From: Schmidtea nova
Taxonomy: Eukaryota
Direction: 5' to 3'
Length of the DNA stretch: 64,000 bases
NCBI GenBank assembly: GCA_044892505.1
Contig: CM097884.1
Location: forward strand, 115,382,001-115,446,000
Position numbers and translations under genes: made by a program
In this document: positions 2,023 through 26,131 of the stretch, one piece after another
How the letters are laid out: each line of letters begins with the position of its first letter
How positions within the stretch are numbered: position 1 is the first letter of the stretch
The notes under the pieces: model-generated
The model's database searches: none
What the model was told of the DNA's origin: nothing
Seen by the model: the letters and a program-made list of their open reading frames with translations, nothing else

Positions 2023-5000
2023 TGGTGGGTTGTTGACCGTCAATATGACCTTGACGTTTCTATGGCTCTCATCAACAACCCAACACATAAAATGTTGAAA
2101 TTACCACCTTGTTACCCGTCACTATGTAACGTTGGTACTGTAACAAGTGGGTGGGTATTCGCAATCAGTGAGCGTCGTCAATACGAAACTATGATTGACC
2201 GAATATCTCCTGGGTCCAAGGGCTACCGATAGAAGGTTTCTTGCCCATTTTGTCCCTTCTTCGACGATTTATCTATAAGCTTTCAATAAAAATTTTCATC
2301 GGAAATTCAACATAAACACTCTGCATAACTATAAATTCATTAATACATCCAAATAAATTATTCCGAGCATCAAAACACTAATATAACCCTATATTTTACC
2401 AATATTGCATTTTATGATAATTAATACATAAAATTTTATATTTTTATAGAAAAATTTTGATCTGCAATTGAAATTTAAGAAAAATTTTTAATTATTACCG
2501 TAATTTAATCCAGTTTAGAAATAATAAAAATAAAATTTCCGTTTGTTTAAAATTGCTAATTTAATCAAAAGGACAAATTTACTCAATTTAAAAGTTATAT
2601 TAATTTTAAAGGTAATTTTATGAATTTTTCGCTAAATTGATAAATTAACTATTTCTCTAGTGCAGATCTACAAGAAATGGACCTTTCCAGAAACTACGAA
2701 GCCAGAGGAAAATTCTCCCACCCCAAACGGGTCAATCCGATTAGAACTCGAGCTCCTATGAAGCAAAATAGCCCGCTCTACCAACCAAGTAAAATTTTGA
2801 TTATTTCAGAATTATAATTTATTTTGATCAATTTTAGAAAATTTCTTGAAGAGAATATGTGGGAAATGGCCCTTCAAGTACTACAAACCAAAAAAATTCT
2901 TGCCGGGGACTCTTATCCCTCAAACTGAATTTTTATTAATAAATCTTTAAAAAAAAAAAATCTTTTCGTTTTTACTCTTTTTCGTTTGAGTTTTTATTAT
3001 TTTTATTAAAAATAAACTGTAATGTAAATGGCCTATTTGGCTGGGTATATACAATTTTATATGGTAGGTTTGAATAATAGAAATTTTTGTATGGTTTTTC
3101 TGGATGTATGTTGCCGACTAACATAACTGTGTAGAATTTTCAGTATTGTTTGCTTGTGTGTATATAACTATTGAATGCTAATAAATGATACGGTGTATGT
3201 GTGTATATTGTATTTTAAGTATACGTTGCTTGTGTATTAGCATGGGAAATGTTATTGAATGAAATGGATGTAATTTTTTGCAAATAGGGATGCATTATGA
3301 TTTTTGAGATATCGTGGGGGTATTTATAATATATATATATATAAATTATATAAAATATTTTTTTCAAAATTAAAATAATAATAATAATTTTTATATTAAA
3401 ATAATAATAATAATTTTTATAATACTTTTATAAATTTTAGATTTATAATTTTACGAAAATAATACCATAATAAAATTTCCAATTTTTATATTATAAATTT
3501 TTATAATACTTTTTATAAATTTTACATTTATAATTTTGTAAAAATATAATAATAAACTTTCTAATTTTTACAATACACATTTTCCTAATACTTTTTATAA
3601 ATTTTAGATTTATAATTTTATGAAAATAATATAATAATAAAATTTCTAATTTTTATAATACATATTTTTATAATACTTTTTATAAAAATTTTTTAATTTA
3701 TAATTTTATGAAAGTAATATAATAATAAAATTTCAATCTATAAATTTTATGGGGTTTAATATAAATTTTGATTTTTCAAATTCTCGGGAATTTTATGAAA
3801 TGATAAAATCTTTTATATATTAATAATATTAGGAACCAAATTTGGTTTACAATTTTTTCCATATAAAATCTTTTCAACATAATAAAAAGCAAATTTTTAC
3901 TTCTGATCCAAATGAAATGATAATAAATTTTTATCCATAAGTTCCGAAATCTAAATAAGCATTTAATCAAAAAAAAATTTTTATAGGCTAAATAAAGATA
4001 AAATAAAAATAAGTTATAAATTTTTCAACGAATGTTTTTAATATCAAGTAAAGTAAATTTCGGTTTTGTTGAGCATGAATTTCCCAATCAAAGTGTACGC
4101 GAATTTTTCGGGACACTTCACTTAGAAATTTCAGGCTCTCGAAAAACAAGATTCACAGGAAAACTTATTTAGACCATAATGAGCTTTAATTCAGATTAAA
4201 TCAATACTTGTTTCACAATTTATTTCACTTCATGAGCATTATTCTAGACTTGAGCATTATTTCGAACAATTTTCTTTTCATCATCAGCATCCATTTTTCT
4301 TGCATTTTCTTATGAGATGAACGTTGTTGAGAGTGTGAAGGTGAAGGTGAGTACGAGTCGATTTTTTAATCAATAATATTTCCTATTTTAGATTTCAAGA
4401 CATGAGGTAGAAATTATTATGTTGTATTACGAAATTGCTTATGTAGATAATAAAAATATGATACTCTATTATAATACAAATCATTAGTATAACAAAACCT
4501 TGCTCTTGGCCAAACCGCGGTTCCCCAGTTGGGATGACGCGAATTTGGATGTATGAGCCTCACCTTAAAGTGGAAATATGGGCTGGCCGATTACCAATCA
4601 GACAACGATCCACCCAGGCTACTAACAGATCCGCACAACTAAGGCTGGACGGATCGTCAGAAGATATGGGAGATAAAAAAAAAATTTTTATTCATTTTTC
4701 TAATTTTATTTAATTTGCTACTTGAAATAAAAACTTTTTGAGTGTATTGGGAATTTGTAACAAACAAAAGTTTTTCAAGAAAAATTGAGAATAAACTAAT
4801 CATTAAATATTTTAATAACATTATAATAAAAATACATGATCAATAAAATAATAAATAACATATTAAATAAAGGAGAGGAATGGGATGATCGTCAGGCATG
4901 ATAGACGACCATTCCAATCCCCAATGAGAATAACCAAAATCAAACAAATCCTTACGTTCCAAGCTCGAATTTTCTCAGATTTGTAACAATACGGCTTCCA

Positions 5001-5900
5001 GACGTTCGTAAAGGATTCGTAGTGTCTCCAAAAATCTTCCCGAATCAAATTGGCAAAATTATTAAATTTGAAATTCTTTCCCACAAACTCTTGTAGCAAA
5101 ATCTTTCAAAAAGAATTCTAAATTCTTGGCAGCAAAATTTTTCAAAAGAGTTCTAAATTCTTGGCAGCAAAATCTTTCAAAAGGATTCTTTTCTTTTCGG
5201 AAAAATTTTCACAAATTTTCACCAGATTCTGAGTTAGCAAAATAAAAGAAATAAGAATTTTTCCACACCAATCTGAGATCTGCCATTTTGATGGCGGTAT
5301 ATATACCATCAAATTTTCTCTATCTCCGGTAGTGCAATAAAACAAATTGTTCTAGAATTTTCTCTTAATTTTTTCTAAATTAATTCTAATGATTTTCCGA
5401 AAATTAATTCCATATTTTTGTATAATAATTTTTTATAAACTCTAAATAATTTATTTTAATTAAAAATTTTTATGTTTGAATCGAAATTTGTTCGATTTGA
5501 TTTAATTTATGATTTTCGATCCATATTAATTCTTTCTATTGTTAAATGTGAAATTTTGTGATAAATTCACAATTTTCTTCTAAAATTTTGTTAATTTTTC
5601 TGCACTGAAGATTTTATGACAAAATTCTGTTCCTTATGGGCACTCTCCATGGGTTTTTTGCCTATTCTAGCTTCCAAACATTCTGCTTTTAATTTTTCTC
5701 GCGATTTCAGTGAAAATATTTATAAATTCGCAGTTAGCGCGCATTCTACCGGTTGATGTGTTTTGATTTATCTTCACCTTTTGGTGTTTTCCACTTAATT
5801 GTTGGATTTTCAATGGAAGCTAAGGTTAAAATGGAATCTTGCGCGTTCTCTACCTATGGGGTTATCGCTTTATTAAAACACATTGCGTTTTGGCCCAACA
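2023..5900 (-). repeat. 3' LTR (3,878 bp)
   Basis: Copy of 22250-26127; duplicated ORF-track entries (3776/24003, 4863/25090, 5142/25369) share offset 20227; one substitution noticed by eye (2657 C vs 22884 A). Confidence 0.92.
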
Positions 5901-6639
5901 TAAAATACTCGGGGGCCCGCAAAAATTGCGTCCCGCAATTTCTCAGAGGGGTTAAGAACCAAGACTAATCAAAGGTCAAAAGGTTGTACATTATACACGA
6001 GCTACTTGGTCGTGATCATGCCGTTCGCGACAATAAAAATAAAAAGTTTAAAAAAAAAATTAATAAAATTATACATATACACAAATATGAGTCTACATCG
6101 ACTCGTAAGCAAAAAAATTAAATGTAATATATGTGCCTACAGCGGCTAATCAAAGTTCAATATGAGTCTACAACGACTCGGATAAAAGTTTTACCAAGTT
6201 TATTAAGTTTGTTGAATTATCAAATTCATTATTGAATTGGTTGGATCTTCGACTGGAATAGTTTGAATGACTCGGTATTGATCAATGGTTTCTTGTCATC
6301 TTCTCTTCGGGATTTCAAATGATTCTTTATTACATTGTTGATTTGGGTTTAATTGGCCTGATTTCTGGGTTTCTTTGAGATGACAATAAATTGTTGTGAT
6401 CATGGTGATTAGAAAAACTTCTCGGTACGATTTCATTGTTGATTTTTGTGTTTCCAATAGAAGAAAATTGAATAATGACGATAAATAATTTTTGCTATTT
6501 ACACGGGCGTTACGATTTTTTAAGCAGGGTTATGATTCAATGATGATGAAATATTGTTCAAGATGAGAATACAAATAAATAGATAGATTAAATGAATGGA
6601 AGAAAATACATGAATTGTCAAAAAGGGGATCGAATCGTA

Positions 6640-7464
6640 TTATTGTTTATAGAAGTAATTCATCTGCACCGAGGTTGTAGCTGTCTCAGGATTAGGCTGT
6701 TCTGGAACTGGATCTTCAAATATTGATCTTAGAAAATTCTCTGACGGGTTGTTGTCTTCATGGGTGATTCGCTTGATGGTATTCAGCTGGATTTTTGCTT
6801 TCTCTAATTTCATTTTTTCTAATCCGATTGATACAACAATGCTAAGGATCATTATGACCGCGAAAAGACTGATGCCTTGTAGAACGACTGTGATGGCTGC
6901 TTCTCGGTCCCTGACGTCTTCGTTTGTTGATCCTTGTTTAGGGATAATCTCCTTTTGCTTTTCGGGTAATATCAATTGTTTCATAATTCTCTCGGTCTGA
7001 TGAAGTTGACTTTTCAGTTTTTGATTTAACTCTTCTGTAAAACTTGATCTTTCCTCATTAACTTCATCTTTATTATTTAGAGATTTTTCTATTAACTTGC
7101 TCAATTTCTTTAGTTCGGTCGTTAACTGTTTGAAGGATGATTGGTTTTCGAGCTGTTTCTTTAGTTGAAGATTGTTTCTTTTGGTTAAGGAGATTTGTAA
7201 TTGGATTAATTGTTGAGTTTCATTTCTCAATTGTTTAAGGATGGTGATTGAATCTTCTCTGAGTTTAGGACATTGTTGACATTGTAATTGTATCTGTTGA
7301 CACTCCTCATTTCTGGTGCTACAAATTCCTTGATAGCTTACGCAAATGCTATCGGATCTTCTAAATGGATGGCTTGCTTGACATTGACTCAATGCTTCTT
7401 CGCTTCGGCAGTTTGTAATTATAAATATCATGATGGTTGTCGTGATCTTCATTAGATTGCTCAT
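6640..7464 (-). CDS. 274-aa predicted type I membrane protein (env position)
   Basis: N-terminal hydrophobic leader, Cys cluster, long coiled coil, TM-like ITVVLQGISLFAVIMILSIVVSIGL, ~55-aa tail; last ORF before the 3' LTR. Confidence 0.75.
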   Translation of the reverse strand: MSNLMKITTTIMIFIITNCRSEEALSQCQASHPFRRSDSICVSYQGICSTRNEECQQIQLQCQQCPKLREDSITILKQLRNETQQLIQLQISLTKRNNLQLKKQLENQSSFKQLTTELKKLSKLIEKSLNNKDEVNEERSSFTEELNQKLKSQLHQTERIMKQLILPEKQKEIIPKQGSTNEDVRDREAAITVVLQGISLFAVIMILSIVVSIGLEKMKLEKAKIQLNTIKRITHEDNNPSENFLRSIFEDPVPEQPNPETATTSVQMNYFYKQ

Positions 7465-7559
7465 TTTCTATAGATTTATAGATTCAAATTGGTTTAATGA
7501 TTTTTCAAATTTTCTCTTTTATATCTTTACAGGGATATTTACATGAGTTTATATATATT

Positions 7560-8135
7560 TTATTCTTTCCTCTCTTCATTTAGCTTTAACGGACTTTCTG
7601 GCTTCCAGTTTCCCATTCTTGCAATCTCGTCTGCTTCTTTTCGCCTTTGTTCTTTGAGGACGTAATTTTCTGCCGTTTTGATTTCTACAACTTTCTTTGC
7701 TTTGAATGTATCAAATTTTGCTTCTATGATTTCACTTTTCAACTTTATTATCTGTTTTTCTCTTTTGATAATCTTCTTCTGTTTGCTCTTCAATGATCGT
7801 TGTAATGACTCGATCTTAATTCTCCTTTTATTATCAGTGTTCTGTTCACTGCTTATTTCCCTTTTGAGTCTGTCAATCTCTTGCTTCTGTCTGTCGCAAT
7901 ATTTTTGAGTGAGACCATTTTGTTGGCGAAATAGATAATTTTCTCGCTTGATTATTTCCATCGTCTCGCACTCTTGCTCCATTTGTGCGATATATTTTCT
8001 ATCTTTGCTCACTACTTCCTTCAATTGGTCTATTTGGTCTTGATAATATTGCTCTGTTGCTCTTTTCCATTTTTTGAATCTTTCTTTTGATATCGTTTGT
8101 TGTTCTGGTTCTGATCTTTGCTTCAATAGTCTCAT
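7560..8135 (-). CDS. 191-aa basic coiled-coil orphan protein
   Basis: Intact ORF with the same cassette layout as its neighbours. Confidence 0.72.
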   Translation of the reverse strand: MRLLKQRSEPEQQTISKERFKKWKRATEQYYQDQIDQLKEVVSKDRKYIAQMEQECETMEIIKRENYLFRQQNGLTQKYCDRQKQEIDRLKREISSEQNTDNKRRIKIESLQRSLKSKQKKIIKREKQIIKLKSEIIEAKFDTFKAKKVVEIKTAENYVLKEQRRKEADEIARMGNWKPESPLKLNEERKE

Positions 8136-8397: not shown

Positions 8398-9945
8398 TTA
8401 TACAAACGTCTCTTCAATTTCTCCGAACCCTTCGTCTTCGATTTGAGGATTTTCTTGCTCCAAATGTACAGGTTGTATTGGTGTTGGATATAGTGGCCAT
8501 AGAATTATTGGAGGTTGATTTTGTAGGCTCTGAACTCTTTCTCGCAAAGTTCTTGAGATTTCCATCTCTTCATCTAGCAAATATGTCATATAATCGAGTT
8601 CTTCACACAGCTGTTCCTTTTCTATCTCGAGCTCTCTCGTATTTTCCATATTTTTCAACCTTTCAATTTCTCTTTCATAGTTTTGGCGATTTTCTTCCAA
8701 ACTTTGGATAGCCATTTCAATCTCATACTGCGATTGCTGGATCGCTTTCTCACATTCGGCCTTTGTTTCTTCTATCTGCCGTCGCTGGTGTTGAATGACA
8801 ATGTCTTTATGCGTATTTGTTCCTCGATATCCGTTGACTTCACGGTTTGCAATAGTCAATTCGATTGTCAATTCTTCAATACTTCTATCATCCATATTCT
8901 TCTGTTGATCATATTGCCTATTTTCAAATTCCAGATATTTGATACGAGCTTCTTGATTCCTGGTGAATTTCATTCTCCTTTGATTCCATTCAGTTTTTAA
9001 TTGAACTTGCCTTCTTAATTCTTTGTTTTCTATCTCTTGCTTTTCTGCATTTTCCCACAATTCTGCTTCATTTATTGACATCAGCTTCTTTGGGAATTCT
9101 CGTAGTTCGTCTCGAGTTCTTTTCCAGGTCTTTTTCCATGTTCTGGCTTGTTCTATTAGCCACTTTATTTGATGCTTTGTGCTTCTTTCTCTGAACTGTC
9201 CGCTCGTTTTCAACTGGAATATTTCTTTTCTGAGTTTCTCCGTTTCCTCATGACGTATGTCTGCATACCAATGACATTCCTCTTTCAGAGCCTCGATTTG
9301 AACGTCTCTCCGTCTTAGTAATTCTTCGTGTAGCATTTTTCTGTGTCGAGCCATTTCCAATAAATCTTGGTGTTCTTGTTTCCATTTCCTAGCCTCTGCT
9401 TTAACCTTTCTAATGATCTTTTCTTGTTCGCTTTCAGGCTGGATTTCTCTCGTTCTCGTTTTAGGTTTCTTTTGAGGTTGTCCTCTCAAGGCAAATGCTT
9501 CATCTCGACACTTTTCCCATTTCTTTTTCATGGCTTCATATCTATTTCTTTCACTTTCTAGTTGCTGCTGATAGAATCTTATGGAGTTGTCATACCTTGT
9601 TTCGGTATCTCTTTTATAGGTTTCGAGCTCATCTTTTCTCAATCTTGCTTGATTTTTCAACGGTACCGACTTTCGTTGTTCGTGCTCGAGTTTTCTCTCC
9701 ATTTCTCTGTACTCTCGTTTATAATTGTCTAGTTCAGCTTCGATATGTGCCTTGTCGTTTATTAGCTTTCGCAATTCCTCGTTTTCCTCTTTTATTTTGT
9801 TGATCTCTTGGGTTCGTTTTTCAATCAATTTAACGTTCTCTTGGATGGCTTCCATTCTTTGTTCATAGCTTCTCATTTGATTTAGTTGTTCTTGTCTTTT
9901 GGCCATCTCCTGATCTAGGATGTCTATCAATTGTTGTATATTCAT
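8398..9945 (-). CDS. 515-aa long coiled-coil orphan protein
   Basis: Uninterrupted E/K/R/Q-rich heptad-like ORF with a Pro-rich acidic tail. Confidence 0.8.
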   Translation of the reverse strand: MNIQQLIDILDQEMAKRQEQLNQMRSYEQRMEAIQENVKLIEKRTQEINKIKEENEELRKLINDKAHIEAELDNYKREYREMERKLEHEQRKSVPLKNQARLRKDELETYKRDTETRYDNSIRFYQQQLESERNRYEAMKKKWEKCRDEAFALRGQPQKKPKTRTREIQPESEQEKIIRKVKAEARKWKQEHQDLLEMARHRKMLHEELLRRRDVQIEALKEECHWYADIRHEETEKLRKEIFQLKTSGQFRERSTKHQIKWLIEQARTWKKTWKRTRDELREFPKKLMSINEAELWENAEKQEIENKELRRQVQLKTEWNQRRMKFTRNQEARIKYLEFENRQYDQQKNMDDRSIEELTIELTIANREVNGYRGTNTHKDIVIQHQRRQIEETKAECEKAIQQSQYEIEMAIQSLEENRQNYEREIERLKNMENTRELEIEKEQLCEELDYMTYLLDEEMEISRTLRERVQSLQNQPPIILWPLYPTPIQPVHLEQENPQIEDEGFGEIEETFV

Positions 9946-10079: not shown

Positions 10080-11249
10080 TTATTGGTCGGCATAACGGAA
10101 TCCCTTGATCCGTTTGTCGACCGGTTTCCTGCACATTGAGCACAATCTCAATTTATTGCTACAATTTCCACAAGCTAACAGATGTCCACACGGTAAATGA
10201 ATAACTTCTACTTTCTTTATCCAACAGATTGAACAGGGGTGTTTATTTAATATAACTTTCTTGATACATGATTCTGGGTTGACAACTTGGGATTTCCTGG
10301 TGAACTGTATTATAGCTTTGAAAAATTCTAGGGTTGATCCAAATGTTTCTCCATTTCTTCTCAATCTCTCTCTGATAACTTCTTTCACAAATATTTCGCT
10401 TTTGCCGGTACGTTCCATTGCCTTTTGAGTTCGTGGTTCGTCTAATATCTTATCTACTAATAATTCATTAACAGGCATCTCTGGGTTTTTATAATTGATC
10501 GGTTCTTCGTCTTCATATAATTCTTCTCCATATTTACAATATTCGTTGTGTTTCAGGTATTCTCCTTCTTCTTTTGGTAATTGATATTGTATTCCACACT
10601 CTGAACATTCAGCGGTTGATTCATTTATTGCATAAAAACCTTCTATTGCTAATCTGATACCCATCTTTTTATCTGCAAAGGTGTCAGTTCTCCCATTAAT
10701 CGTATATTTTGGATCAATTTCTATAAATCGTATCTTTGCTGGGCCTGTTGAAGTTATCGTTACTATTTTGGGTTTTTCTTCTTCATAATTGTTCATTGTT
10801 GCTGGTTTTCTTGGTTTTTCGCATGCCTTTAACACAAACTGGCACGTGGGTGAAAGTTTTCTATGTTCTGTTAGTGGATCATCGTTAATTCTCCAAGGTT
10901 CTATTTCAATTCTGCAAAATACACAAGTTACTTTATCGGGTTTCTCGATTGTCCCTGCAAAATACAAACCATCTTTGGCGAATTTTCTGTATTGCTTTTC
11001 ATAGAAATTGTCTTGTTGTAAAAAGGTTATATATCTTCGGTTCTCATTTTTCAACGTTTCATCGATAGTTTTGAATTTGCCATAATTTCTTTCCTTGGGA
11101 ACATTCGATATTGTTCGTGTAAATTGACAATAAATCAATTCTGAGGTAATTGGTTTTGACATCTTTTCTTTACCTCTTTTCATTAATTCGCATAAACTTT
11201 TGAATGATCTGTCATCTTCTCGTACTTTCACGATCTTCCTTTCAGTCAT
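10080..11249 (-). CDS. Inhibitor of apoptosis (BIR, degenerate BIR, UBA-like, RING)
   Basis: Canonical BIR DKVTCVFC...W...DDPLTEHRKLSPTCQFV; second BIR-like RTDTF...GFY...CSEC; C-terminal RING CSIC...LPCGHLLACGNC...CSMC. Confidence 0.93.
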   Translation of the reverse strand: MTERKIVKVREDDRSFKSLCELMKRGKEKMSKPITSELIYCQFTRTISNVPKERNYGKFKTIDETLKNENRRYITFLQQDNFYEKQYRKFAKDGLYFAGTIEKPDKVTCVFCRIEIEPWRINDDPLTEHRKLSPTCQFVLKACEKPRKPATMNNYEEEKPKIVTITSTGPAKIRFIEIDPKYTINGRTDTFADKKMGIRLAIEGFYAINESTAECSECGIQYQLPKEEGEYLKHNEYCKYGEELYEDEEPINYKNPEMPVNELLVDKILDEPRTQKAMERTGKSEIFVKEVIRERLRRNGETFGSTLEFFKAIIQFTRKSQVVNPESCIKKVILNKHPCSICWIKKVEVIHLPCGHLLACGNCSNKLRLCSMCRKPVDKRIKGFRYADQ

Positions 11250-11473: not shown

Positions 11474-12877
11474 CTACGGCTTTCTTACTTCGATAATCAG
11501 ATACAGGATATTATTTACCAAATATAATGATTGTTCTGTGGTTAAATAATGTAATGCAATAAAACGTGGATTTCCTACAGCTACGTTGTAGTCTTCGATC
11601 GGCTTCCTATAAGCTGCTTCTACCTTCTTCAAGTTTGGTCTGAATACTTCCCGAACGTTGTTTTCCTTTGTTCCGATCATCATAGTTATATCGCAATCGT
11701 AGGGCCATTCTAACCAATCGTCATAATCTCCTTTACATATTTGAAAATATACAGATAAATGAGTTCCGGCTCCTAGTCCGTCTCCCGTTAGATATACTTT
11801 GAATCTAAGCTTGTAACCATGTTTCCAACTGTGACAAGGTGGACTTGTCCATACACGTTGACCTCCTTCTCTTGCTAGTCTCAATTTCTCTGTAAATTCT
11901 GTGATTTTCCAATAGTAGGGTGTGACGGGTAGTTCTTCCATTGTTGGCAATATGCTTTCCAATCTTTGTTGGATTGTTGATATTTCTGCTATTTTCTGGT
12001 CTAATAGTATCATTTTTTGGATCATTTGTTCTCTTATTCTTTCAAAATTTCCTCTCGTATCCAAAATCTCTTGTATCATGATTTTGTGAGATTTTATTTC
12101 TGTGTTGGCTTCTCCAATTACCAGTGCGGTTGCTCCAATAGCTTCCACAACGGTTCTCAAATGATTTACACTATTTTCATCTACATGCTTTTGTATTTCC
12201 TCTTTTGGTAATCTCACTTTGCAATTGAATAATTTTAGTGGACATGCAGTAGGCTTCTTTTCGCATATTTCCCAATGTTCTTTTAGCTTCACGTTTTCTG
12301 CCATTCCACATTGATTACAATTACCTTCATACTCGTCACATACTTGCCCTTCTTCTATATTCCAATGCTCATCTTTTAACACTATCCAAGCGTCTGTTTC
12401 GTTGCAAAACTCACATATTTCCTGTCGTTGTTCACACATTTCCTCATGACTGTCTTTGACTTTCTTCAACATTTCTTCTTCACACCACTTGCATTTGGCT
12501 TTCGTATCATCACAATTATAAAGGTGTTTGGCGATCCATTTTATTGGCCCACTCCATACACATGGTTTATTTGGACAGGTTGTTGCTGCGTTCATTATTT
12601 CCCGATTCATTGCGATATCTGGTCTGGTTTGGTCAAATTGGTCTATTATTGCTTCACCACATTCAGGACATAGCTTCTGTTTTGTTCGTATTATTTTCAT
12701 CACGCAATTAGTGCATATTCGACATCCACATTCAGTTTGTCTGGGTTCTATCAATAAATTTCTACATACTTTACATTTAAATCTTTCTTGAAATTCTGTT
12801 GGTTCTATCCGTTGTCTCTGTAGTATCTGATATAGTTCGATCAATTCCTCTTGTTTCTGCTGATTCTCGGTCTGCAT
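11474..12877 (-). CDS. TNF receptor-associated factor (TRAF2/3/5-like): RING, TRAF zinc fingers, coiled coil, MATH
   Basis: RING CKVC...ECGCRICTNC...CPEC; several Zn fingers; MATH signature GYKLRFKVYLTGDGLGAGTHLSVYFQICKGDYDDWLEWP. The ORF is open from 12937; probable ATG 12877. Confidence 0.95.
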   Translation of the reverse strand: MQTENQQKQEELIELYQILQRQRIEPTEFQERFKCKVCRNLLIEPRQTECGCRICTNCVMKIIRTKQKLCPECGEAIIDQFDQTRPDIAMNREIMNAATTCPNKPCVWSGPIKWIAKHLYNCDDTKAKCKWCEEEMLKKVKDSHEEMCEQRQEICEFCNETDAWIVLKDEHWNIEEGQVCDEYEGNCNQCGMAENVKLKEHWEICEKKPTACPLKLFNCKVRLPKEEIQKHVDENSVNHLRTVVEAIGATALVIGEANTEIKSHKIMIQEILDTRGNFERIREQMIQKMILLDQKIAEISTIQQRLESILPTMEELPVTPYYWKITEFTEKLRLAREGGQRVWTSPPCHSWKHGYKLRFKVYLTGDGLGAGTHLSVYFQICKGDYDDWLEWPYDCDITMMIGTKENNVREVFRPNLKKVEAAYRKPIEDYNVAVGNPRFIALHYLTTEQSLYLVNNILYLIIEVRKP

Positions 12878-12971
12878 TCTAAAATAATTTATAATTTTTT
12901 CGTTTTGCTTTTTATACCAAGTTTTATTCATATTCACATTTTTACATTTTATTTACACTGGTTTTAAATTT

Positions 12972-13607
12972 TTATAATAGTTCATCCCTTCCCGTCGAGT
13001 CAGGTTCTCGAACCGATTCTGGAAAATTGTCTAACCAGTTATACCATGCTCTGACTTCTTCTCGCGTCTCATTCAATCTTCTAATTTCGTTTGTTTGCCA
13101 CTCCGTATGTCTTGTTAACCATTCAATTCTCTGGTCCTTTTGGATTATCATTTGTTGTTGTTCTTCCATTTTAGCAAGATATAATAAATTTCTGTTTACA
13201 CTTTCTGTTAACAAAGCTTGTTCGTTTTTCCATTGTGCATAGGCTTGATTCAACATCCTGCTTATTAATTCACATTGCGTTTTCCATGATAACTCTTGCG
13301 TCATTGTCTGCTGATAAACCATCGGAGCTGATATTGATTGAGTCTGGCTATTTGTTGGTTGTTGATTTAATACGAATGTCGTTTGAATTGGGTTCATGGT
13401 TTCATCAAATAGTGGAATTTCGACTTGGTATATCAGGTTTCTATCATCAATTGTTGGATTTTGCGTTTCATTTTCGATTACTGGGGTTTGCAGTGACCCT
13501 TCTCTTTCTCGTATATTGGTATCTTCTGGAAACTGAGTTTGATTTGATGGTTCATTGAACGTTGGAACTGATGTTTGATAACTTTGATTCTCGTTGTTCG
13601 AATTCAT
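12972..13607 (-). CDS. ~211-aa orphan: N/Q/T-rich N-terminus plus C-terminal coiled coil
   Basis: Intact ORF co-oriented with the other cargo genes and with similar A-rich composition; no family recognised. Confidence 0.7.
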   Translation of the reverse strand: MNSNNENQSYQTSVPTFNEPSNQTQFPEDTNIREREGSLQTPVIENETQNPTIDDRNLIYQVEIPLFDETMNPIQTTFVLNQQPTNSQTQSISAPMVYQQTMTQELSWKTQCELISRMLNQAYAQWKNEQALLTESVNRNLLYLAKMEEQQQMIIQKDQRIEWLTRHTEWQTNEIRRLNETREEVRAWYNWLDNFPESVREPDSTGRDELL

Positions 13608-13758: not shown

Positions 13759-16700
13759 TTACTCTGACAACTTGCGTTTCGACGACATCCTGATGTTCTC
13801 ATCTGGCTCGTCGGTTAATATGACTTTTATGTCTTCTTGGGTGACTTTTGAACCATTATGTGCTACTATCTGGCATACGAGTGTTCTAAACATTTCTTGT
13901 GATGCTTTCTTTTTGTAAACACAGATTTTATATTTTGTTTCTCGTTTTAATCCATTTATTCGGATTTCTCCTCCTTCTGCTCGTTGACATTTGACTGGAT
14001 TATCTCCTTTAATTTGCAATTTGCCTCTACTCCAACATGCTTCTTCATTATCTGCTCCTTGTATTAATATTTGTACTGGTTTTCTTTTGTCATCAGCTTC
14101 CGTTCCTTTCAATGCTGACAGCATCAATATCAGTAATATTATGTCTTTTATTCGAGTTTTATGTAGACATGCTGTTCGATTTTCATAATTTGAAGTTTCT
14201 TGCTTGGGTTCATCACTTTTGTTCCCAATTTCATCGTTATTGCTGTTTCCATCATCTTTCTCGTCTTTGTCATTGTTTCTGTTGATACTTTCATTGTCAT
14301 CTTTCTTTGTTTTGTTGTTATTATTCTCTTCATCTTCATCGTCAGGCTCATTGTGATCATCAGAACCACCCTCGGTTCCGATTAAAATGTCGTCCTCGAC
14401 ATTTATTAATTTTATTATTTCCTCATATCTTTTAGCTATTTCGTCTGCTTCGGCTTTTATATTTGCTCTCTTGGTTATTTCATCTTTGACGTTGTTCCAG
14501 CTTCGGTGAATTCTGCTTTCTTTTATATTTTCTTTCCATATGATAACTTGCTGATATAATTCCTGTCTTTTAGCTCCAATTCTTTCTTTTTCTTTTTTGT
14601 TGTTCGTAAACCTGAAATCAGGTCTTTGCAGCAATGCTTTAATCGTTTTATACATTTTCCATTTTCTTTTCATGGCTCTTTTCATTATCATATTTTCACC
14701 GTCTTCAAATCTGTCATTGACATTTATCACTCCTTCGTGCGTAACTGGATGTAACCATTTAATCATTTTTGCTGTTGTTTCGTCGGCATCTTTGTTCACT
14801 GCATTTACTAATGGATTTGGATCTGAACTGAGTACTTCAATATCTTCCTCTGTGGCATTTGACATAATATATTTGATTATTTGATGGTTATTTGCTTGCA
14901 CTGCATAAGATAACACCGTTTCATTTTTATCATCTCTTTCTTTAAAACTTGATCCGGTTCTCATCAGTTCTGCTATGAGTTTCTTGGATCCTCCTTTTTC
15001 AATTGCTACCATCAAGGGTGTTTGATCTTTCCAGTTTTTCGTGTTGGTATGTTGTTTACACTTTTCCATGAGTTTTATGATTTCAAACATTCTCTGTTCA
15101 TTCCCACTTTTTATTGCGTGGTATAATGGTATCTCATCTTTAAAACTGGCAATTGTAAGTAATATTGGTAATCTTTCTTTTATGGTATTCATCGCTTCTG
15201 TCGTTTCATTTCCTTTGGCATATTCCTCAACCATTAAGCTTACTCCTCCCAATATTTCAAATAGATTTTTACTTTTTGACCATTCTGGCATAATTTCTTT
15301 GGTAATCTCAATGATCAATTCCATCTTTTTGCGGTGCTCCATTTTTACATCGTCAACTACCTTAGGTTGTTCAGATATTGTTGTTGGCTGATTTACTTTT
15401 CTGCTCGTAGTTAATATACGATGTAGCCAATCGTCATTTTTATTCTCTCGAAACATATATACTTGTCCTTTTCTGGTTGTTTCTGGATTTGATTGTTCTA
15501 TCATTGTTTCTCTTGTGCAATTCTCTTCAATTTGGTGTTTCAACTTCATCGTATTCAAATCAATTACAGATCCTTTTAACAGTTTTGGTATTAAGTCTGT
15601 TCCAATAATGCATGAGGTACCCAGTTGTTTTATTACTGTCAAATAAGTTGATATTTTTATTTTCCTGTATTCGATGTTCGTCCATATTTTTCCAACGATA
15701 TTGACAGATTCTTTGCTGCATGTTATTACGTCTACTGATGTTTTCTCGATGCATAACCGTAACAATTCTGGTATCATATCGATATCTATTGCTGATATAT
15801 TTGCGCCAGTATCTATCATCGCGTCTACTTTTACGCCATTAACTTCGATGTTAATTGTAAGTGTTGGTCCAGCTGGAGTTTTCATCATTGCAATTATCGT
15901 TGTTTCGGGATTATCTTCACCTCTCGCTTTTCTGGTCAACTCGCTTCCTGCAATTTTATCAATAGTTAATTTATTACTTGTTTCGATTTGTATCGGGGCT
16001 ACACCGATTTCTATATCATCATCCAGCGATTCTCCATCATATTTCAAGTGAAATGGTAAATTGAATGGTAATCTCTCTTTTATCTCTTTGATCTTTGTTG
16101 TTAATGATACATTCATCTTTATTTCTTCTAGACTCGGAAACTGAATTTTCAATCTGCACATCTGTGGATCATCGTTTGTTTGTTCCAGTTGTTTCCATTT
16201 TCTCATGATGTCATCAAATTGTGTTGAATACCAAGGGCATAAACGTCTGCATTTCTCGATTTCTCTCACTATCAATCTCATGTTTGATATATTTGCACTA
16301 TTTTTTATAACCCATTTTAGTAATTCAGTTGTTGTTTCATATTGTTTTCCTGCACTCTTGCTTAGGTTACTGATTAATCGTTCGGTCTTTGACGTTTCCG
16401 TTTGTCTTGATCTCTCGAGCTTCGCTGATTTCCTCTTTTCCTCCGACTTCTGATTCATTTTCGTCATTTCTTCTATGGTAATGGTTAACAATCTTTGTGC
16501 CACTTCTTCTAATTTGATTGTCGTAGATTCATTCCATTTCTCGTCCATGCTACATGTGTCATCATCGCTTCTTCTTTCTCTTCTTTTTCGGTTATATTTC
16601 TCCACAAACTTCTTCTTTTCTTCTCCCTCCATATCTTTTACTGAAAATTCATATACATTTCCCTTTCTTTCAATTTCAACGTCTGGTAATTCGGCTATCA

Positions 16701-16869
16701 TTTCATTTACTTTTTCTTCGATATTCTGTTGTAGTTGCATTTTCATTGTTATTACTTCTTTTTCTTCTTCCTGCAAATTATCTTCTACATTTGAACTGGT
16801 TATTTTCTGCTCTTCTTTTAATAAATTATCTTCTGAGTTTGTACTGGTAACTTTCTGATTTTCCTCCAT
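13759..16869 (-). CDS. ~1,036-aa polyprotein: charged N-terminus, ubiquitin-like segment, retropepsin (DTG), ankyrin repeats, acidic linker, internal hydrophobic signal-like stretch
   Basis: VNGVKVDAMIDTGANISAI (DTG at 15805-15813) and IIGTDL flap/C-terminal motif; ankyrin-like PLYHAIKSGN, QTPLMVAIEKG, ETVLSYAVQANN; IILLILMLSAL near 14100-14146. The ORF track starts at TTG 16881; the first ATG is 16869. Confidence 0.8.
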   Translation of the reverse strand: MEENQKVTSTNSEDNLLKEEQKITSSNVEDNLQEEEKEVITMKMQLQQNIEEKVNEMIAELPDVEIERKGNVYEFSVKDMEGEEKKKFVEKYNRKRRERRSDDDTCSMDEKWNESTTIKLEEVAQRLLTITIEEMTKMNQKSEEKRKSAKLERSRQTETSKTERLISNLSKSAGKQYETTTELLKWVIKNSANISNMRLIVREIEKCRRLCPWYSTQFDDIMRKWKQLEQTNDDPQMCRLKIQFPSLEEIKMNVSLTTKIKEIKERLPFNLPFHLKYDGESLDDDIEIGVAPIQIETSNKLTIDKIAGSELTRKARGEDNPETTIIAMMKTPAGPTLTINIEVNGVKVDAMIDTGANISAIDIDMIPELLRLCIEKTSVDVITCSKESVNIVGKIWTNIEYRKIKISTYLTVIKQLGTSCIIGTDLIPKLLKGSVIDLNTMKLKHQIEENCTRETMIEQSNPETTRKGQVYMFRENKNDDWLHRILTTSRKVNQPTTISEQPKVVDDVKMEHRKKMELIIEITKEIMPEWSKSKNLFEILGGVSLMVEEYAKGNETTEAMNTIKERLPILLTIASFKDEIPLYHAIKSGNEQRMFEIIKLMEKCKQHTNTKNWKDQTPLMVAIEKGGSKKLIAELMRTGSSFKERDDKNETVLSYAVQANNHQIIKYIMSNATEEDIEVLSSDPNPLVNAVNKDADETTAKMIKWLHPVTHEGVINVNDRFEDGENMIMKRAMKRKWKMYKTIKALLQRPDFRFTNNKKEKERIGAKRQELYQQVIIWKENIKESRIHRSWNNVKDEITKRANIKAEADEIAKRYEEIIKLINVEDDILIGTEGGSDDHNEPDDEDEENNNNKTKKDDNESINRNNDKDEKDDGNSNNDEIGNKSDEPKQETSNYENRTACLHKTRIKDIILLILMLSALKGTEADDKRKPVQILIQGADNEEACWSRGKLQIKGDNPVKCQRAEGGEIRINGLKRETKYKICVYKKKASQEMFRTLVCQIVAHNGSKVTQEDIKVILTDEPDENIRMSSKRKLSE

Positions 16870-17637
16870 TTCTTTCTGCAAATCGGCTACAAACTTTCTA
16901 ATATTGTGGATTTTACTTCTTTATTTATCAGCTTTATTTCTTTTTAATTTCCTTTCGTCGTTTTTAATAGATTTGACTCTTTATCTTTCGACTTTACGAA
17001 CTTGGTTGGTTTGGTAATATTGTCAATTTGTGTTTAATATCGATTGCTGATCTTTCTTTTATCTTCAATTGGATCTTCTTTGATTTATTTTCTTTTACTT
17101 CTTTCCTTTTCAATTAGACTTCTTTTCTTCTTTTCTTCTATATATACCTCTTCAATAACTGATTGATTCGACTATCTCTTGGCTTGGCTTTGATCTGTTG
17201 GACAATCTAAATAAAAATATCGCTTCTTCATCGACGCCATTTACCCCCCTTTTATTCTGAGCTCAGATTTTAAATTATCTATATCTCGTAATAATTATCT
17301 ATATGGTCGTATCAGTTATCTATACCCTGATAATAATAATAATAATAGTAACAATAATAATAATATTACTAATACTATAATAACAGTATGATCATACTCA
17401 TCTCGGCATTTGAGGAAAAAATGTCTTGTTCGTTATCTATTCATGGCCATTATTTTATTTCCTAAGTATTTCTCGATGTCTTTTATCTGCTCTTATTAAC
17501 GGTTTGTATTACTACACCTTAAGTATTCGCGTTCAATGTTTTTCTCTGTCATAACAAAATTTTTTCTGCGCAGTTTTATTTAATTCTATCTCTCAAACGT
17601 TTTTCCTAAATTTCTCAACAATATCCATAAACATTGG

Positions 17638-18132
17638 ACTCTCAAAGTCTCTCACATACATGAACTCTCAAAGTTTCTCAATTATCTGGACTCTCAAAGT
17701 CTCTCATACATGAACTCTCAAAGTTTCTCAATTATCTGGACTCTCAAAGTCTCTCATACATGAACTCTCAAAGTTTCTCAATTATCTGGACTCTCAAAGT
17801 CTCTCAATTATCTGGACTCTCAAAGTCTCTCCCAGAGCGCTCAATTATCTGGACTCTCAAAGTCTCTAAATTACCTGGACTCTCAAAGTCTCTCAATTAT
17901 CTGGACTCTCAAAGTCTCTCAATTATCTGGACTCTCAAAGTCTCTCAATTATCTGGACTCTCAAAGTCTCTCAATTATCTGGACTCTCAAAGTCTCTCAC
18001 ATACATGAACTCTCAAAGTTTCTCAATTATCTGGACTCTCAAAGTCTCTCACATACATGAACTCTCAAAGTTTCTCAATTATCTGGACTCTCAAAGTCTC
18101 TCACATACATGAACTCTCAAAGTTTCTCAATT
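17638..18132. repeat. Tandem array of about 19 units of ~26 bp (ACTCTCAAAGTYTCTCA...)
   Basis: Units end in either ATTATCTGG or (CA)TACATGA and alternate A/B over part of the array; there are no unique spacers. Confidence 0.95.
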
Positions 18133-19192: not shown

Positions 19193-19675
19193 TCACGAAC
19201 AAAATACCATGATTTTGTCATCAATTGTCTGTTTGCAGATTACGCATCTCTTTATTTCTCTAGAACACGGCTGGCAATAACACAAATGTCCGCATGGCAT
19301 GAATAAAATGTTCGCTTCTTTTTGTCGACAAATATAACATCTTTCGAACGAATCGATCTGTTGATTTATCGATTTCTCTAGCTTGTCCATGATTTTATCG
19401 ATTTTACCAATCCATTCTTGTATTTTCAGATTAAAATTCGGATTATTCAGTCGCAATCGTTGTAATTCGTAAATTGTTTCTAACGAAATATCGTTTGTTG
19501 TTCCTACAACTCCTGCAATCACTATTAGATTCTCAGGTTGTGGTCTAGGATTCAACAATAATTCATCTTTTATTCCATTTACTCGTTCGAGTTTCTCGCT
19601 CAACACCTGCAATGGGTCATCTTTAAAATCGAAAAACAACTCGATTCGTAGTAAAATATGCTCAATCGATTCCAT
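19193..19675 (-). CDS. 160-aa protein with C-terminal C3HC4 RING finger (IAP/MYLIP-like E3 ligase type)
   Basis: CYIC...PCGHLCYCQPC...CVIC motif near the C-terminus; intact ORF with TTTTAG directly before the ATG. Confidence 0.85.
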   Translation of the reverse strand: MESIEHILLRIELFFDFKDDPLQVLSEKLERVNGIKDELLLNPRPQPENLIVIAGVVGTTNDISLETIYELQRLRLNNPNFNLKIQEWIGKIDKIMDKLEKSINQQIDSFERCYICRQKEANILFMPCGHLCYCQPCSREIKRCVICKQTIDDKIMVFCS

Positions 19676-20882: not shown

Positions 20883-22221
20883 AATTATACTAAGATGCTT
20901 ATAGTACTACTAGTAATAATAACTAAATTGATAATAATAATAGTAATAATAATAATTATAATGATAATAATAATAATGCGCGTTATACGGCAATTCACCC
21001 AATATATTTCTTATATATTATTACGTAATAATTATAATAAAAATATAATAAATCCGTCTTATTTTTATATTATTTGACCAAATTGCTGTTTCTACTGTTA
21101 AAATGACAATAATACTAATCCTGATACCTATATTATCATTATTACTCGGTGTTACTACTTTCCTGGGTCAAAATTCCGTAATTTCTTCAATCTTTTAAAT
21201 TTCTTAGCGGCGATTTTCTACACTTTTTGCGGATTCCGGTGTCATATTCTATCTTTCGAGGTATTTTCCACTTGCCGGTGTTGCACACTCACTTTCTACG
21301 CTCCATGGACGTTATTTGAACAATTTTACTATTATTGGTTGTTCGTGGGATTCATTTGTCGCGGTTTGGTGTTTTTACTATTTTACCCGTGATTTTCTTA
21401 GACTTTTGGCCCATTCCGGCTCAACTTTTTATCCTATGCTATGTTTGATGTTTATTTGTATTAAAGACACTTATTCTACGCTCTGTTGTTATTATTCATT
21501 CTCAATTTCAATCGTTGGCGGTTCGTGGGGCTTAAAGATCGTTTTTTCGGCTTAACTTTTATTCGCTTTCGCGGTAATTTTGATTCGGAACTCTCTATTT
21601 TCCAAATTTTTGCCAAATCTTAATTCAAAATGGTACTTAAACAATATTCTCTACNNNNNNNNNNNNNNNNNNNNNNNNNNNNNNNNNNNNNNNNNNNNNN
21701 NNNNNNNNNNNNNNNNNNNNNNNNNNNNNNNNNNNNNNNNNNNNNNNNNNNNNNNNNNNNNNNNNNNNNNNNNNNNNNNNNNNNNNNNNNNNNNNNNNNN
21801 NNNNNNNNNNNNNNNNNNNNNNNNNNNNNNNNNNNNNNNNNNNNNNNNNNNNNNNNNNNNNNNNNNNNNNNNNNNNNNNNNNNNNNNNNNNNNNNNNNNN
21901 NNNNNNNNNNNNNNNNNNNNNNNNNNNNNNNNNNNNNNNNNNNNNNNNNNNNNNNNNNNNNNNNNNNNNNNNNNNTAATACTTATAATGGTATAAACGTA
22001 AAAATAATAATAGCAATATAAATAATATTAATAATCAAACATAAATTTTTCCCATTTTCGTCGAAAATACTCAAATGATTATTGATTTTTATAAAACTTT
22101 CACCAAATCTCGTTTTTCTTTAAAATACTTTTATCTTTCCAACGCAAAAACATTAACAAACTCCCACGTAAAGTCATTTCCATTGATTATCGCTTCAAAC
22201 AAAACAAACTAGATGAGATGA

Positions 22222-22239
22222 ATCCCGGCTGAGCCCCCA
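22222..22239 (-). promoter_or_regulatory. Primer-binding site, tRNA-Pro type
   Basis: Minus strand reads TGGGGGCTCAGCCGGGAT, 16/18 identical to the MLV tRNA-Pro PBS TGGGGGCTCGTCCGGGAT; 10 nt inside the 5' LTR. Confidence 0.88.
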
Positions 22240-22249
22240 AATTTTTATA

Positions 22250-25200
22250 TGGTGGGTTGTTGACCGTCAATATGACCTTGACGTTTCTATGGCTCTCATC
22301 AACAACCCAACACATAAAATGTTGAAATTACCACCTTGTTACCCGTCACTATGTAACGTTGGTACTGTAACAAGTGGGTGGGTATTCGCAATCAGTGAGC
22401 GTCGTCAATACGAAACTATGATTGACCGAATATCTCCTGGGTCCAAGGGCTACCGATAGAAGGTTTCTTGCCCATTTTGTCCCTTCTTCGACGATTTATC
22501 TATAAGCTTTCAATAAAAATTTTCATCGGAAATTCAACATAAACACTCTGCATAACTATAAATTCATTAATACATCCAAATAAATTATTCCGAGCATCAA
22601 AACACTAATATAACCCTATATTTTACCAATATTGCATTTTATGATAATTAATACATAAAATTTTATATTTTTATAGAAAAATTTTGATCTGCAATTGAAA
22701 TTTAAGAAAAATTTTTAATTATTACCGTAATTTAATCCAGTTTAGAAATAATAAAAATAAAATTTCCGTTTGTTTAAAATTGCTAATTTAATCAAAAGGA
22801 CAAATTTACTCAATTTAAAAGTTATATTAATTTTAAAGGTAATTTTATGAATTTTTCGCTAAATTGATAAATTAACTATTTCTATAGTGCAGATCTACAA
22901 GAAATGGACCTTTCCAGAAACTACGAAGCCAGAGGAAAATTCTCCCACCCCAAACGGGTCAATCCGATTAGAACTCGAGCTCCTATGAAGCAAAATAGCC
23001 CGCTCTACCAACCAAGTAAAATTTTGATTATTTCAGAATTATAATTTATTTTGATCAATTTTAGAAAATTTCTTGAAGAGAATATGTGGGAAATGGCCCT
23101 TCAAGTACTACAAACCAAAAAAATTCTTGCCGGGGACTCTTATCCCTCAAACTGAATTTTTATTAATAAATCTTTAAAAAAAAAAAATCTTTTCGTTTTT
23201 ACTCTTTTTCGTTTGAGTTTTTATTATTTTTATTAAAAATAAACTGTAATGTAAATGGCCTATTTGGCTGGGTATATACAATTTTATATGGTAGGTTTGA
23301 ATAATAGAAATTTTTGTATGGTTTTTCTGGATGTATGTTGCCGACTAACATAACTGTGTAGAATTTTCAGTATTGTTTGCTTGTGTGTATATAACTATTG
23401 AATGCTAATAAATGATACGGTGTATGTGTGTATATTGTATTTTAAGTATACGTTGCTTGTGTATTAGCATGGGAAATGTTATTGAATGAAATGGATGTAA
23501 TTTTTTGCAAATAGGGATGCATTATGATTTTTGAGATATCGTGGGGGTATTTATAATATATATATATATAAATTATATAAAATATTTTTTTCAAAATTAA
23601 AATAATAATAATAATTTTTATATTAAAATAATAATAATAATTTTTATAATACTTTTATAAATTTTAGATTTATAATTTTACGAAAATAATACCATAATAA
23701 AATTTCCAATTTTTATATTATAAATTTTTATAATACTTTTTATAAATTTTACATTTATAATTTTGTAAAAATATAATAATAAACTTTCTAATTTTTACAA
23801 TACACATTTTCCTAATACTTTTTATAAATTTTAGATTTATAATTTTATGAAAATAATATAATAATAAAATTTCTAATTTTTATAATACATATTTTTATAA
23901 TACTTTTTATAAAAATTTTTTAATTTATAATTTTATGAAAGTAATATAATAATAAAATTTCAATCTATAAATTTTATGGGGTTTAATATAAATTTTGATT
24001 TTTCAAATTCTCGGGAATTTTATGAAATGATAAAATCTTTTATATATTAATAATATTAGGAACCAAATTTGGTTTACAATTTTTTCCATATAAAATCTTT
24101 TCAACATAATAAAAAGCAAATTTTTACTTCTGATCCAAATGAAATGATAATAAATTTTTATCCATAAGTTCCGAAATCTAAATAAGCATTTAATCAAAAA
24201 AAAATTTTTATAGGCTAAATAAAGATAAAATAAAAATAAGTTATAAATTTTTCAACGAATGTTTTTAATATCAAGTAAAGTAAATTTCGGTTTTGTTGAG
24301 CATGAATTTCCCAATCAAAGTGTACGCGAATTTTTCGGGACACTTCACTTAGAAATTTCAGGCTCTCGAAAAACAAGATTCACAGGAAAACTTATTTAGA
24401 CCATAATGAGCTTTAATTCAGATTAAATCAATACTTGTTTCACAATTTATTTCACTTCATGAGCATTATTCTAGACTTGAGCATTATTTCGAACAATTTT
24501 CTTTTCATCATCAGCATCCATTTTTCTTGCATTTTCTTATGAGATGAACGTTGTTGAGAGTGTGAAGGTGAAGGTGAGTACGAGTCGATTTTTTAATCAA
24601 TAATATTTCCTATTTTAGATTTCAAGACATGAGGTAGAAATTATTATGTTGTATTACGAAATTGCTTATGTAGATAATAAAAATATGATACTCTATTATA
24701 ATACAAATCATTAGTATAACAAAACCTTGCTCTTGGCCAAACCGCGGTTCCCCAGTTGGGATGACGCGAATTTGGATGTATGAGCCTCACCTTAAAGTGG
24801 AAATATGGGCTGGCCGATTACCAATCAGACAACGATCCACCCAGGCTACTAACAGATCCGCACAACTAAGGCTGGACGGATCGTCAGAAGATATGGGAGA
24901 TAAAAAAAAAATTTTTATTCATTTTTCTAATTTTATTTAATTTGCTACTTGAAATAAAAACTTTTTGAGTGTATTGGGAATTTGTAACAAACAAAAGTTT
25001 TTCAAGAAAAATTGAGAATAAACTAATCATTAAATATTTTAATAACATTATAATAAAAATACATGATCAATAAAATAATAAATAACATATTAAATAAAGG
25101 AGAGGAATGGGATGATCGTCAGGCATGATAGACGACCATTCCAATCCCCAATGAGAATAACCAAAATCAAACAAATCCTTACGTTCCAAGCTCGAATTTT

Positions 25201-26127
25201 CTCAGATTTGTAACAATACGGCTTCCAGACGTTCGTAAAGGATTCGTAGTGTCTCCAAAAATCTTCCCGAATCAAATTGGCAAAATTATTAAATTTGAAA
25301 TTCTTTCCCACAAACTCTTGTAGCAAAATCTTTCAAAAAGAATTCTAAATTCTTGGCAGCAAAATTTTTCAAAAGAGTTCTAAATTCTTGGCAGCAAAAT
25401 CTTTCAAAAGGATTCTTTTCTTTTCGGAAAAATTTTCACAAATTTTCACCAGATTCTGAGTTAGCAAAATAAAAGAAATAAGAATTTTTCCACACCAATC
25501 TGAGATCTGCCATTTTGATGGCGGTATATATACCATCAAATTTTCTCTATCTCCGGTAGTGCAATAAAACAAATTGTTCTAGAATTTTCTCTTAATTTTT
25601 TCTAAATTAATTCTAATGATTTTCCGAAAATTAATTCCATATTTTTGTATAATAATTTTTTATAAACTCTAAATAATTTATTTTAATTAAAAATTTTTAT
25701 GTTTGAATCGAAATTTGTTCGATTTGATTTAATTTATGATTTTCGATCCATATTAATTCTTTCTATTGTTAAATGTGAAATTTTGTGATAAATTCACAAT
25801 TTTCTTCTAAAATTTTGTTAATTTTTCTGCACTGAAGATTTTATGACAAAATTCTGTTCCTTATGGGCACTCTCCATGGGTTTTTTGCCTATTCTAGCTT
25901 CCAAACATTCTGCTTTTAATTTTTCTCGCGATTTCAGTGAAAATATTTATAAATTCGCAGTTAGCGCGCATTCTACCGGTTGATGTGTTTTGATTTATCT
26001 TCACCTTTTGGTGTTTTCCACTTAATTGTTGGATTTTCAATGGAAGCTAAGGTTAAAATGGAATCTTGCGCGTTCTCTACCTATGGGGTTATCGCTTTAT
26101 TAAAACACATTGCGTTTTGGCCCAACA
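22250..26127 (-). repeat. 5' LTR (3,878 bp)
   Basis: Near-identical to 2023-5900; followed on the minus strand by a 10-nt spacer and the PBS; imperfect terminal inverted repeat TGTTGGG/TGGTGGG. Confidence 0.92.
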
Positions 26128-26131
26128 ATTG

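Follow-up and report, generated by a model that had tools for sequence, protein, structure and literature searches.

How a retrotransposon that carries none of the enzymes of reverse transcription or integration can be young, abundant and full of intact genes is the question raised by a 64,000-nt stretch of the Schmidtea nova genome (contig CM097884.1 of assembly GCA_044892505.1, positions 115,382,001 to 115,446,000 of the forward strand, hereafter the window), in which a mobile element of 24.1 kb occupies 2023-26127 on the minus strand. In the reading that we consider probable, this element is one very recent insertion of an abundant family that lacks pol and Gag and branched off from a Burro1-like giant Gypsy element; it is likely packaged, copied and integrated by complete elements of the same genome, its ends are likely swapped with theirs, and its eight genes are under selection and predicted to keep the host cell alive. 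Positions are those of the window, and loci fetched from the rest of the genome are given as L numbers.

Comparison of the window with itself resolved two direct long terminal repeats (LTRs) of 3,878 bp with a single mismatch between them and with termini TGTTGGG...CCCACCA as read on the element's minus strand, enclosing an internal region of 16,349 bp whose eight frames starting at ATG encode 160-1,036 aa and all read on the minus strand. This copy is very young. The primer binding site (PBS), TGGGGGCTCAGCCGGGAT (22239-22222), pairs with CCA and the last 15 nt of a host tRNA identified by ARAGORN as Pro-TGG (four of five genes in one array). The host genome's supply of this primer tRNA is unusually large, the tRNA 3′ motif having 1,106 genome matches, and tRNA-Pro genes stand in tandem with a 308-bp period near 459.6 Mb of G000:C1 (L035). 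The paired TG...CA LTRs, 4-bp target-site duplication (TSD), tRNA-Pro PBS and eight open reading frames outside pol that a preliminary description had listed were all recovered by self-comparison, ARAGORN and the frame list. Its further claim, of a protease unaccompanied by reverse transcriptase (RT), RNase H, integrase or Gag, also holds, as Pfam matched the retroviral protease and returned no match in the element for Gag, RT, RNase H, integrase or Env, and as the corresponding parts of the partner polyprotein described below had no match in the element at E<=0.01. Rfam gave no match in window 1-27000.

The window contains a run of N at 21655-21975 and its LTRs are almost identical, both of which would be expected if gag-pol were hidden inside the N run or if scaffolding had duplicated the LTRs, the two outcomes that the preliminary description had regarded as fatal to its proposal. 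Neither was found. In the 17 other loci with both anchors present (the window's own locus being left out), the counterpart of the N run plus 39 flanking bases, which together measure 360 in the window, is 232-556 nt long and 90-95% AT. In addition, ATTG lies at both ends of the window element, four more complete copies have TSDs of their own, and the deletion junction was seen 1,895 times. An assembly artefact was rejected on these grounds and its probability is negligible. An empty allele was not seen among the loose ends listed in four contig sets. A read run labelled as another organism covered the element at a depth of ~30-50 with the family's common letters, for which carry-over within one study is as good an explanation as a second host, and it was not used.

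The size of the family was determined by motif searches of 1.25 Gb of genome, in which the exact LTR-end/PBS junction marked 2,218 copies, the pol-less SUMO-protease junction motif occurred at 1,895 sites (at most one mismatch), the IAP motif occurred at 1,157 sites, and reversed control motifs had no matches. The best 144 of 7,202 candidate protease matches were 96-100% identical, all in frames of at most 1,180 codons. Four of six protease loci that were fetched proved to be complete colinear elements, with TSDs CACG, CTTC, ATTT and GTTT and LTR pairs 99.8-100% identical, while the other two were interrupted or rearranged; two of the four complete copies are without the stretch corresponding to window 10099-13177 (IAP, TRAF and part of the 211-aa gene). 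The 1,895 junction sites and these four further complete copies with distinct TSDs, of the kind that the preliminary description had anticipated, establish that the pol-less unit has itself amplified. When one in five of the first 100 PBS junctions listed was taken at regular intervals, giving 20 sites of 10 kb each, the sample comprised 11 pol-less copies, three complete elements, one deleted helper and five unclassed sites; by exact matches, 52 of those first 100 had the pol-less junction or the IAP motif at the expected distance, nine the RT motif and 39 neither. Exact LTR starts numbered 3,225 against 2,218 PBS junctions, motif variants not being counted, which suggests few solo LTRs, as expected of a recent burst.

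A complete partner encoding RT, RNase H and integrase was found in the same genome in ~200 copies, with the RT motif at 206 sites, so that the pol-less form outnumbers it by about 9:1 (1,895 versus 206 sites). Three complete partners of 27.6-30.2 kb (TSDs TTAA, GTAA and GAAT; LTR pairs 99.8-100% identical) contain a frame of ~4,990 codons with Gag, zinc knuckles (CCHC), MATH, a viral fusion glycoprotein, protease, RT (YIDD), RNase H, integrase, ankyrin and FN3. The BCL2 and dUTPase motifs named for Burro in the accessible portion of PMC6431247 had no Pfam match here. The partner and the pol-less element have the same LTR ends, PBS, leader, 3′ cis end and TSD length, and the LTR termini, PBS region and 3′ end of the window element are 90-95% identical to those of a helper. 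The 30 nt adjoining the 3′ LTR are identical in all three complete helpers, and helpers and window element alike have no purine tract ahead of that LTR. The 10-nt spacers at 5901-5910 and 22240-22249, which separate the LTRs from the internal signals, resemble inverted copies of each other (CA-TA(T)AAAA...GGGGGC), and the helpers have this arrangement too. The preliminary description had proposed a cargo vehicle moved in trans, of which the pol-less mobile family and its autonomous partner in the same genome stand; the element is, however, no unrelated vehicle and is marked as a Burro derivative by its cargo domains.

The relationship between the two forms is recorded in the 1,036-aa protein, which consists of four colinear, in-frame pieces of the partner polyprotein (E 1e-18 to 7e-110), with Gag, MATH, Env and RT-RNase H-integrase missing. 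Trees of natural copies were built for three regions. In the leader tree of 21000-21600, helper and pol-less rows are intermixed, with three changes forced by starred branches and a best cross pair of 99.7% identity, and in the 3′-end tree rows are also intermixed, the window lying nearest to a helper at 98%. Given that the proteins are 42-60% alike whereas the ends are 90-98% alike and intermixed, the pol-less lineage is old, and its ends have likely been renewed by recombination with the helper. A recent deletion in the present helper, with passenger genes left intact only through a young burst, would account for the near-identical LTRs and for the ends held in common with the helper, a fresh deletion derivative of the helper does exist (L055), and cargo modules vary in presence between copies; however, such an event would leave near-identical protein, not 42-60% identity, silent changes exceed a mutation-matched null in all eight genes, and older Gag-bearing stages are present. 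This origin is largely refuted and very improbable. One of those stages is a sampled copy (L056) that keeps a Gag/zinc-knuckle remnant and has at least 40 relatives at 92-96% identity. Sixteen of the 44 listed places were fetched (L076-L091), and RT or Env was matched in none of the 16, six of which have a longer and ten a shorter Gag; most contain stops or frameshifts, while L084 keeps an open frame of 1,316 codons. Because these copies without RT or Env vary in Gag length, pol and Env were likely lost first and Gag shed in steps.

The divergence of the 1,036-aa protein would also be explained if the true helper or parent were a rarer Burro lineage with the same protease, ankyrin region and cargo plus pol, the ~200 complete copies being mere end-sharing cousins. 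In the helper found, nothing closely matches the full TRAF gene, the IAP gene or the other four genes, Burro-2, -3 and -4 are published as carrying BIR and related motifs (PMC6431247, accessible portion), and LTR ends that have diverged (77-83%) were seen close to several of the fetched loci. Nevertheless, the best 144 protease matches all fall in frames of at most 1,180 codons, all 16 Gag-remnant copies are without pol, the 12 RT sites of helpers that lie in the first 53 Mb have no exact IAP motif within 20 kb downstream, six stretches adjoining diverged LTR ends hold no such element, and the ends intermix with those of the helper that was found. A closer autonomous parent was thus not found with the Gag-remnant probe in 16 of 44 listed places or beside the diverged LTR ends, and we regard such a parent as improbable.

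The preliminary description had argued for selection from the intact cargo, but open frames beside near-identical LTRs are a sign of youth and do not by themselves indicate selection; that the cargo is selected is nonetheless upheld, because silent changes are in excess when copies are compared. Every distinct difference between the window copy and other copies entered the count a single time, and the null was obtained by scattering identical base changes at random. For variants in at least two copies, the adjusted ratio of nonsynonymous to synonymous changes (N/S) was 0.17-0.42, with p<=0.001 in all eight genes: 0.42 for RING, 0.40 for protease-ankyrin, 0.36 for TRAF, 0.29 for IAP, and 0.28, 0.17, 0.17 and 0.29 for the 211-, 515-, 191- and 274-aa genes. 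All eight genes are under purifying selection. For single-copy variants N/S was 0.33-1.05 and fell below 1 in seven of the eight genes, and the long protease-ankyrin frame is open in 15 of 23 loci, with stops and frameshifts gathering in inserted copies. The stronger constraint on shared variants, together with decay after insertion, is what selection during the replication of copies would produce. Selection by the host on a domesticated or host-favoured anti-death cassette could also hold the frames open, and would agree with the reportedly expanded and well-expressed planarian MATH/TRAF set (PMC6109357, accessible portion) and with the single-copy ratios below 1; this is scarcely credible for dispersed, young, TSD-flanked insertions that accrue stops and frameshifts after insertion and in which shared variants are the more constrained.

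The eight genes and the other features of the element are listed in Table 1. Among them, the SUMO-like match (PF11976) in the 1,036-aa protein is weak (E 0.022), the MATH domain of the TRAF gene is just 37% identical to that of the helper, and the 160-aa RING gene has a 96% identical copy in one helper and is partly deleted in others. The ninth gene encodes ~264 aa in other copies and is truncated in the window. Searches of public proteins gave no match for the IAP and 274-aa proteins among near-length candidates; the best 150 matches of the 1,036-aa protein in a representative protein set were generic ankyrin-repeat proteins only, and no GYPSM1 or Burro1-4 sequence was returned by the searches with these three proteins. 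An optional 482-aa gene lies behind the mini-polyprotein in three of the 11 sampled pol-less copies (L040, L041 and L046; ~8540-9990 from the PBS), with a signal peptide, a cysteine cluster that is EGF-like by eye, a membrane helix and no Pfam family above cut-off. A putative two-exon frame was seen by eye inside the LTR (2677 to ~2950, plus strand, antisense to the element, GT..AG gap at 2789-2837), with a twin in the other LTR.

Table 1 Features of the pol-less element in window coordinates; residue ranges refer to the 1,036-aa mini-polyprotein
Feature	Position	Strand	Remarks
Target-site duplication ATTG, left	2019..2022	strandless	read on plus
3′ LTR	2023..5900	-	3,878 bp
3′ cis end: hairpin, GC-rich palindrome, 10-nt spacer where purine tract expected	5901..5960	-
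Ninth-gene remnant (signal peptide, coiled coil, membrane protein)	6311..6440	-	584-bp deletion at 6311-6314
274-aa predicted membrane protein: signal peptide, six-cysteine patch, coiled coil, one membrane helix	6640..7464	-
191-aa basic coiled-coil protein	7560..8135	-	no Pfam family above cut-off
515-aa coiled-coil protein	8398..9945	-	no Pfam family above cut-off
IAP-like gene, 389 aa: BIR + C-terminal RING	10080..11249	-	Pfam; best solved relative cIAP1
TRAF gene, full-length, 485 aa, intronless: RING-zinc finger-coiled coil-MATH	11474..12931	-	best solved relatives TRAF1/5/2
211-aa Q/N/T-rich protein, C-terminal coiled coil	12972..13607	-	no Pfam family above cut-off
1,036-aa mini-polyprotein: post-Gag piece, SUMO-like piece, aspartic protease (DTG intact), ankyrin region	13759..16869	-
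Mini-polyprotein piece	residues 45-144		46% identical to partner
Mini-polyprotein piece	residues 156-314		52% identical to partner
Mini-polyprotein piece (DTG intact)	residues 311-460		60% identical to partner
Mini-polyprotein piece	residues 469-986		42% identical to partner
41-nt GT..AG intron	16876..16916	-	ends 6 nt ahead of mini-polyprotein start
Tandem repeat array in leader	17635..18132	-	common to element and helper
160-aa IAP-type RING protein in leader	19193..19675	-	Pfam RING
Primer binding site, tRNA-Pro	22222..22239	-	10 nt beyond 5′ LTR
5′ LTR	22250..26127	-	3,878 bp
Target-site duplication ATTG, right	26128..26131	strandless	read on plus

Several signals bear on how genes stacked in this manner might be expressed. 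A YAG triplet, resembling a splice acceptor, lies within 10 nt upstream of the first ATG in seven of the eight genes, compared to 17 of 121 non-coding ATGs, and in the eighth, TRAF, it stands ahead of Met19 instead (a start chosen afterwards). The 41-nt intron is precisely absent from L033, L038 and public contigs, as expected if spliced RNA was copied back; it is the only intron-like deletion among the nine events listed, which show no introns ahead of the other genes. Intergenic spacers measure 40-262 nt, and AATAAA lies within 150 nt in six of the eight genes, a weak signal given AT-rich DNA. The motif TGTANATA, which is compatible with a Pumilio element or with a UGUA enhancer of polyadenylation, occurs eight times in 1,399 nt of sense-strand spacer (6440-13758) and not at all antisense (null mean 0.6; none of 2,000 draws as high). 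These signals would fit one long RNA resolved by alternative cis-splicing or by spliced-leader trans-splicing. Spacers in flatworm operons are ~100 bp (PMC8629364, accessible portion).

Taken together, the shared ends and the structure of the copies point to mobilisation in trans by the partner. RNA from the 5′ LTR would be packaged alongside helper RNA in helper particles, reverse transcription would be primed by tRNA-Pro, insertion would leave a 4-bp TSD, and template switching in mixed particles could keep the ends alike while the proteins diverged by 40-58%. The stacked genes would be freed from the long RNA by splicing onto the acceptor ahead of each start, each with its own 3′ end, and the kept protease may cut its own mini-polyprotein and perhaps the helper's as well. 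Death and TNF-receptor signalling are the settings in which IAP, TRAF and RING proteins work, and those of the element could damp cell death or TNF/TRAF signalling in the expressing cell, with the cargo as a whole keeping that cell alive long enough for helper-driven copying.

Several points weigh against this account. Both the trans-mobilisation and the predicted expression and function of the cargo proteins are read from sequence. The IAP and TRAF module is dispensable (1,157 IAP against 1,895 junction sites) and, being optional, would help at most, and MATH and ankyrin domains are present in the helper as well, which means that the cargo may supply nothing that the helper lacks. The six fetched copies were the best protease matches and not a random draw, which favours intact ones; the genome searches covered the best 40-144 matches, and an autonomous family that is less common and more like the pol-less proteins would lie beyond their reach; and the IAP selection estimate comes from six loci only. 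The trees contain three to four helper rows, a small sample, the 3′-end tree is without any starred branch, and in the remaining leader tree (18330-19510) a single group with weak support (83/71), nested among pol-less rows, holds all four helper-type rows.

A more elaborate version holds that the satellite and Burro divide the labour, Burro giving particle, envelope and enzymes and the satellite an operon-like, spliced receptor-TRAF-cIAP-RING kit that would keep stem or germ cells alive, with the 274-aa protein as a mimic of the TNF receptor. We consider this unlikely. The 274-aa protein scored 0.80 to Grindelwald-type TNF-receptor clusters (Atlas) with low recognition, a weak lead only; Pfam and PDB, in which it had no match, and an uninformative single-sequence fold (mean predicted local distance difference test 50.7, below 50 over residues 1-49) lend it no support. 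No canonical TRAF motif was found in its tail. If such a kit did exist, families of this type would account for much of the reported expansion of the planarian TRAF set (PMC6109357, accessible portion).

The element was inserted into an old, decayed Gypsy copy, of which RT and RNase H remnants lie to the right (26978-27920) and protease-like letters, seen by eye, to the left (~1500-1870). An unrelated, fragmented Gypsy on the plus strand at 43606-47375 has RT, RNase H and integrase pieces 32% identical to the helper and is not the partner. Exons of host genes were seen at 29494-29799 (plus; LSm domain with an RGG tail, presumably LSm4-like), 48850-49242 (minus; Strabismus-like) and 63182-63613 (minus; TPR repeats). 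Other mobile elements lie beside or inside copies of the family, namely a second Gypsy with a fusion glycoprotein in frame ahead of the protease (L073:4117-9756), a 1,220-aa frame with a weak endonuclease VII match (L019:1677-5336) and a two-frame RT element (L032:2574-9941).

LTR elements that cannot move on their own are commonly regarded as parasites without working genes. This one lost pol long ago, still holds a protease and seven further genes under selection, and has overtaken its helper by ~9:1. If most copies are near full length, the family may amount to as much as ~40 Mb, an estimated ~3% of the genome. The presence of more than 1,100 IAP-like and linked TRAF genes in one animal genome bears on gene-family counts.

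The accessible portion of PMC6431247 describes Burro1/GYPSM1 as a single giant frame of 4,873 aa with Gag, in-frame Env and pol, reports MATH/TRAF, BIR, RING, ankyrin, coiled-coil and SUMO-like motifs in Burro elements, and proposes that Burro interferes with apoptosis and ubiquitination in the host. Because the cargo described here lies in separate frames, that proposal is testable gene by gene through RNA interference. The window family resembles Burro1/GYPSM1 in its multi-kb LTRs, thousands of copies, protease and accessory domains and reading frames, and the layout of Burro1/GYPSM1 is matched by the complete partner (~4,990 codons versus 4,873 aa). Unlike Burro1/GYPSM1, the window element is without Gag, Env, RT, RNase H and integrase and has a 1,036-aa patchwork frame and seven to nine separate stacked genes. 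In total length, Burro elements are near or above 30 kb, the window element measures 24.1 kb with 3.9-kb LTRs, and the partners measure 27.6-30.2 kb. A pol-less Burro family is not described in the accessible portion of PMC6431247. A coding, high-copy, pol-less Burro satellite was not found in the literature searched, which did not cover the primary Burro paper or supplements, and no animal precedent appeared among the papers listed; such a satellite may already stand among Burro-2 to -4 or in a repeat library.

The element is neither an autonomous Burro nor a LARD. LARD elements are large and non-autonomous with long LTRs and a non-coding internal region, and the window element shares the first three properties but has a coding, conserved internal region. 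Replication-defective, helper-dependent retroviruses carry captured host genes, and viral mimics of IAP, ankyrin and TNF-receptor proteins exist. Like such viruses, the element has lost gag-pol-env, kept its ends and carries cell-regulatory genes; unlike them, it persists in the genome as a stable family of ~1,900 copies, and its cargo genes are many and under long-term selection. Non-autonomous partners of plant LTR elements include soybean SNRE, with LTR swapping, and rice RIRE2/Dasheng (PMC6894440, PMC3701649, accessible portions). As in those plant systems, a high-copy element without replication enzymes shares, and here likely exchanges, its ends with an autonomous partner. The soybean counterpart of the complete partner is the element named SARE. 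The planarian pair differs from the plant ones in living in an animal, in having a helper with env, in its large set of regulatory genes of host type that are under purifying selection, and in the protease that has been kept.

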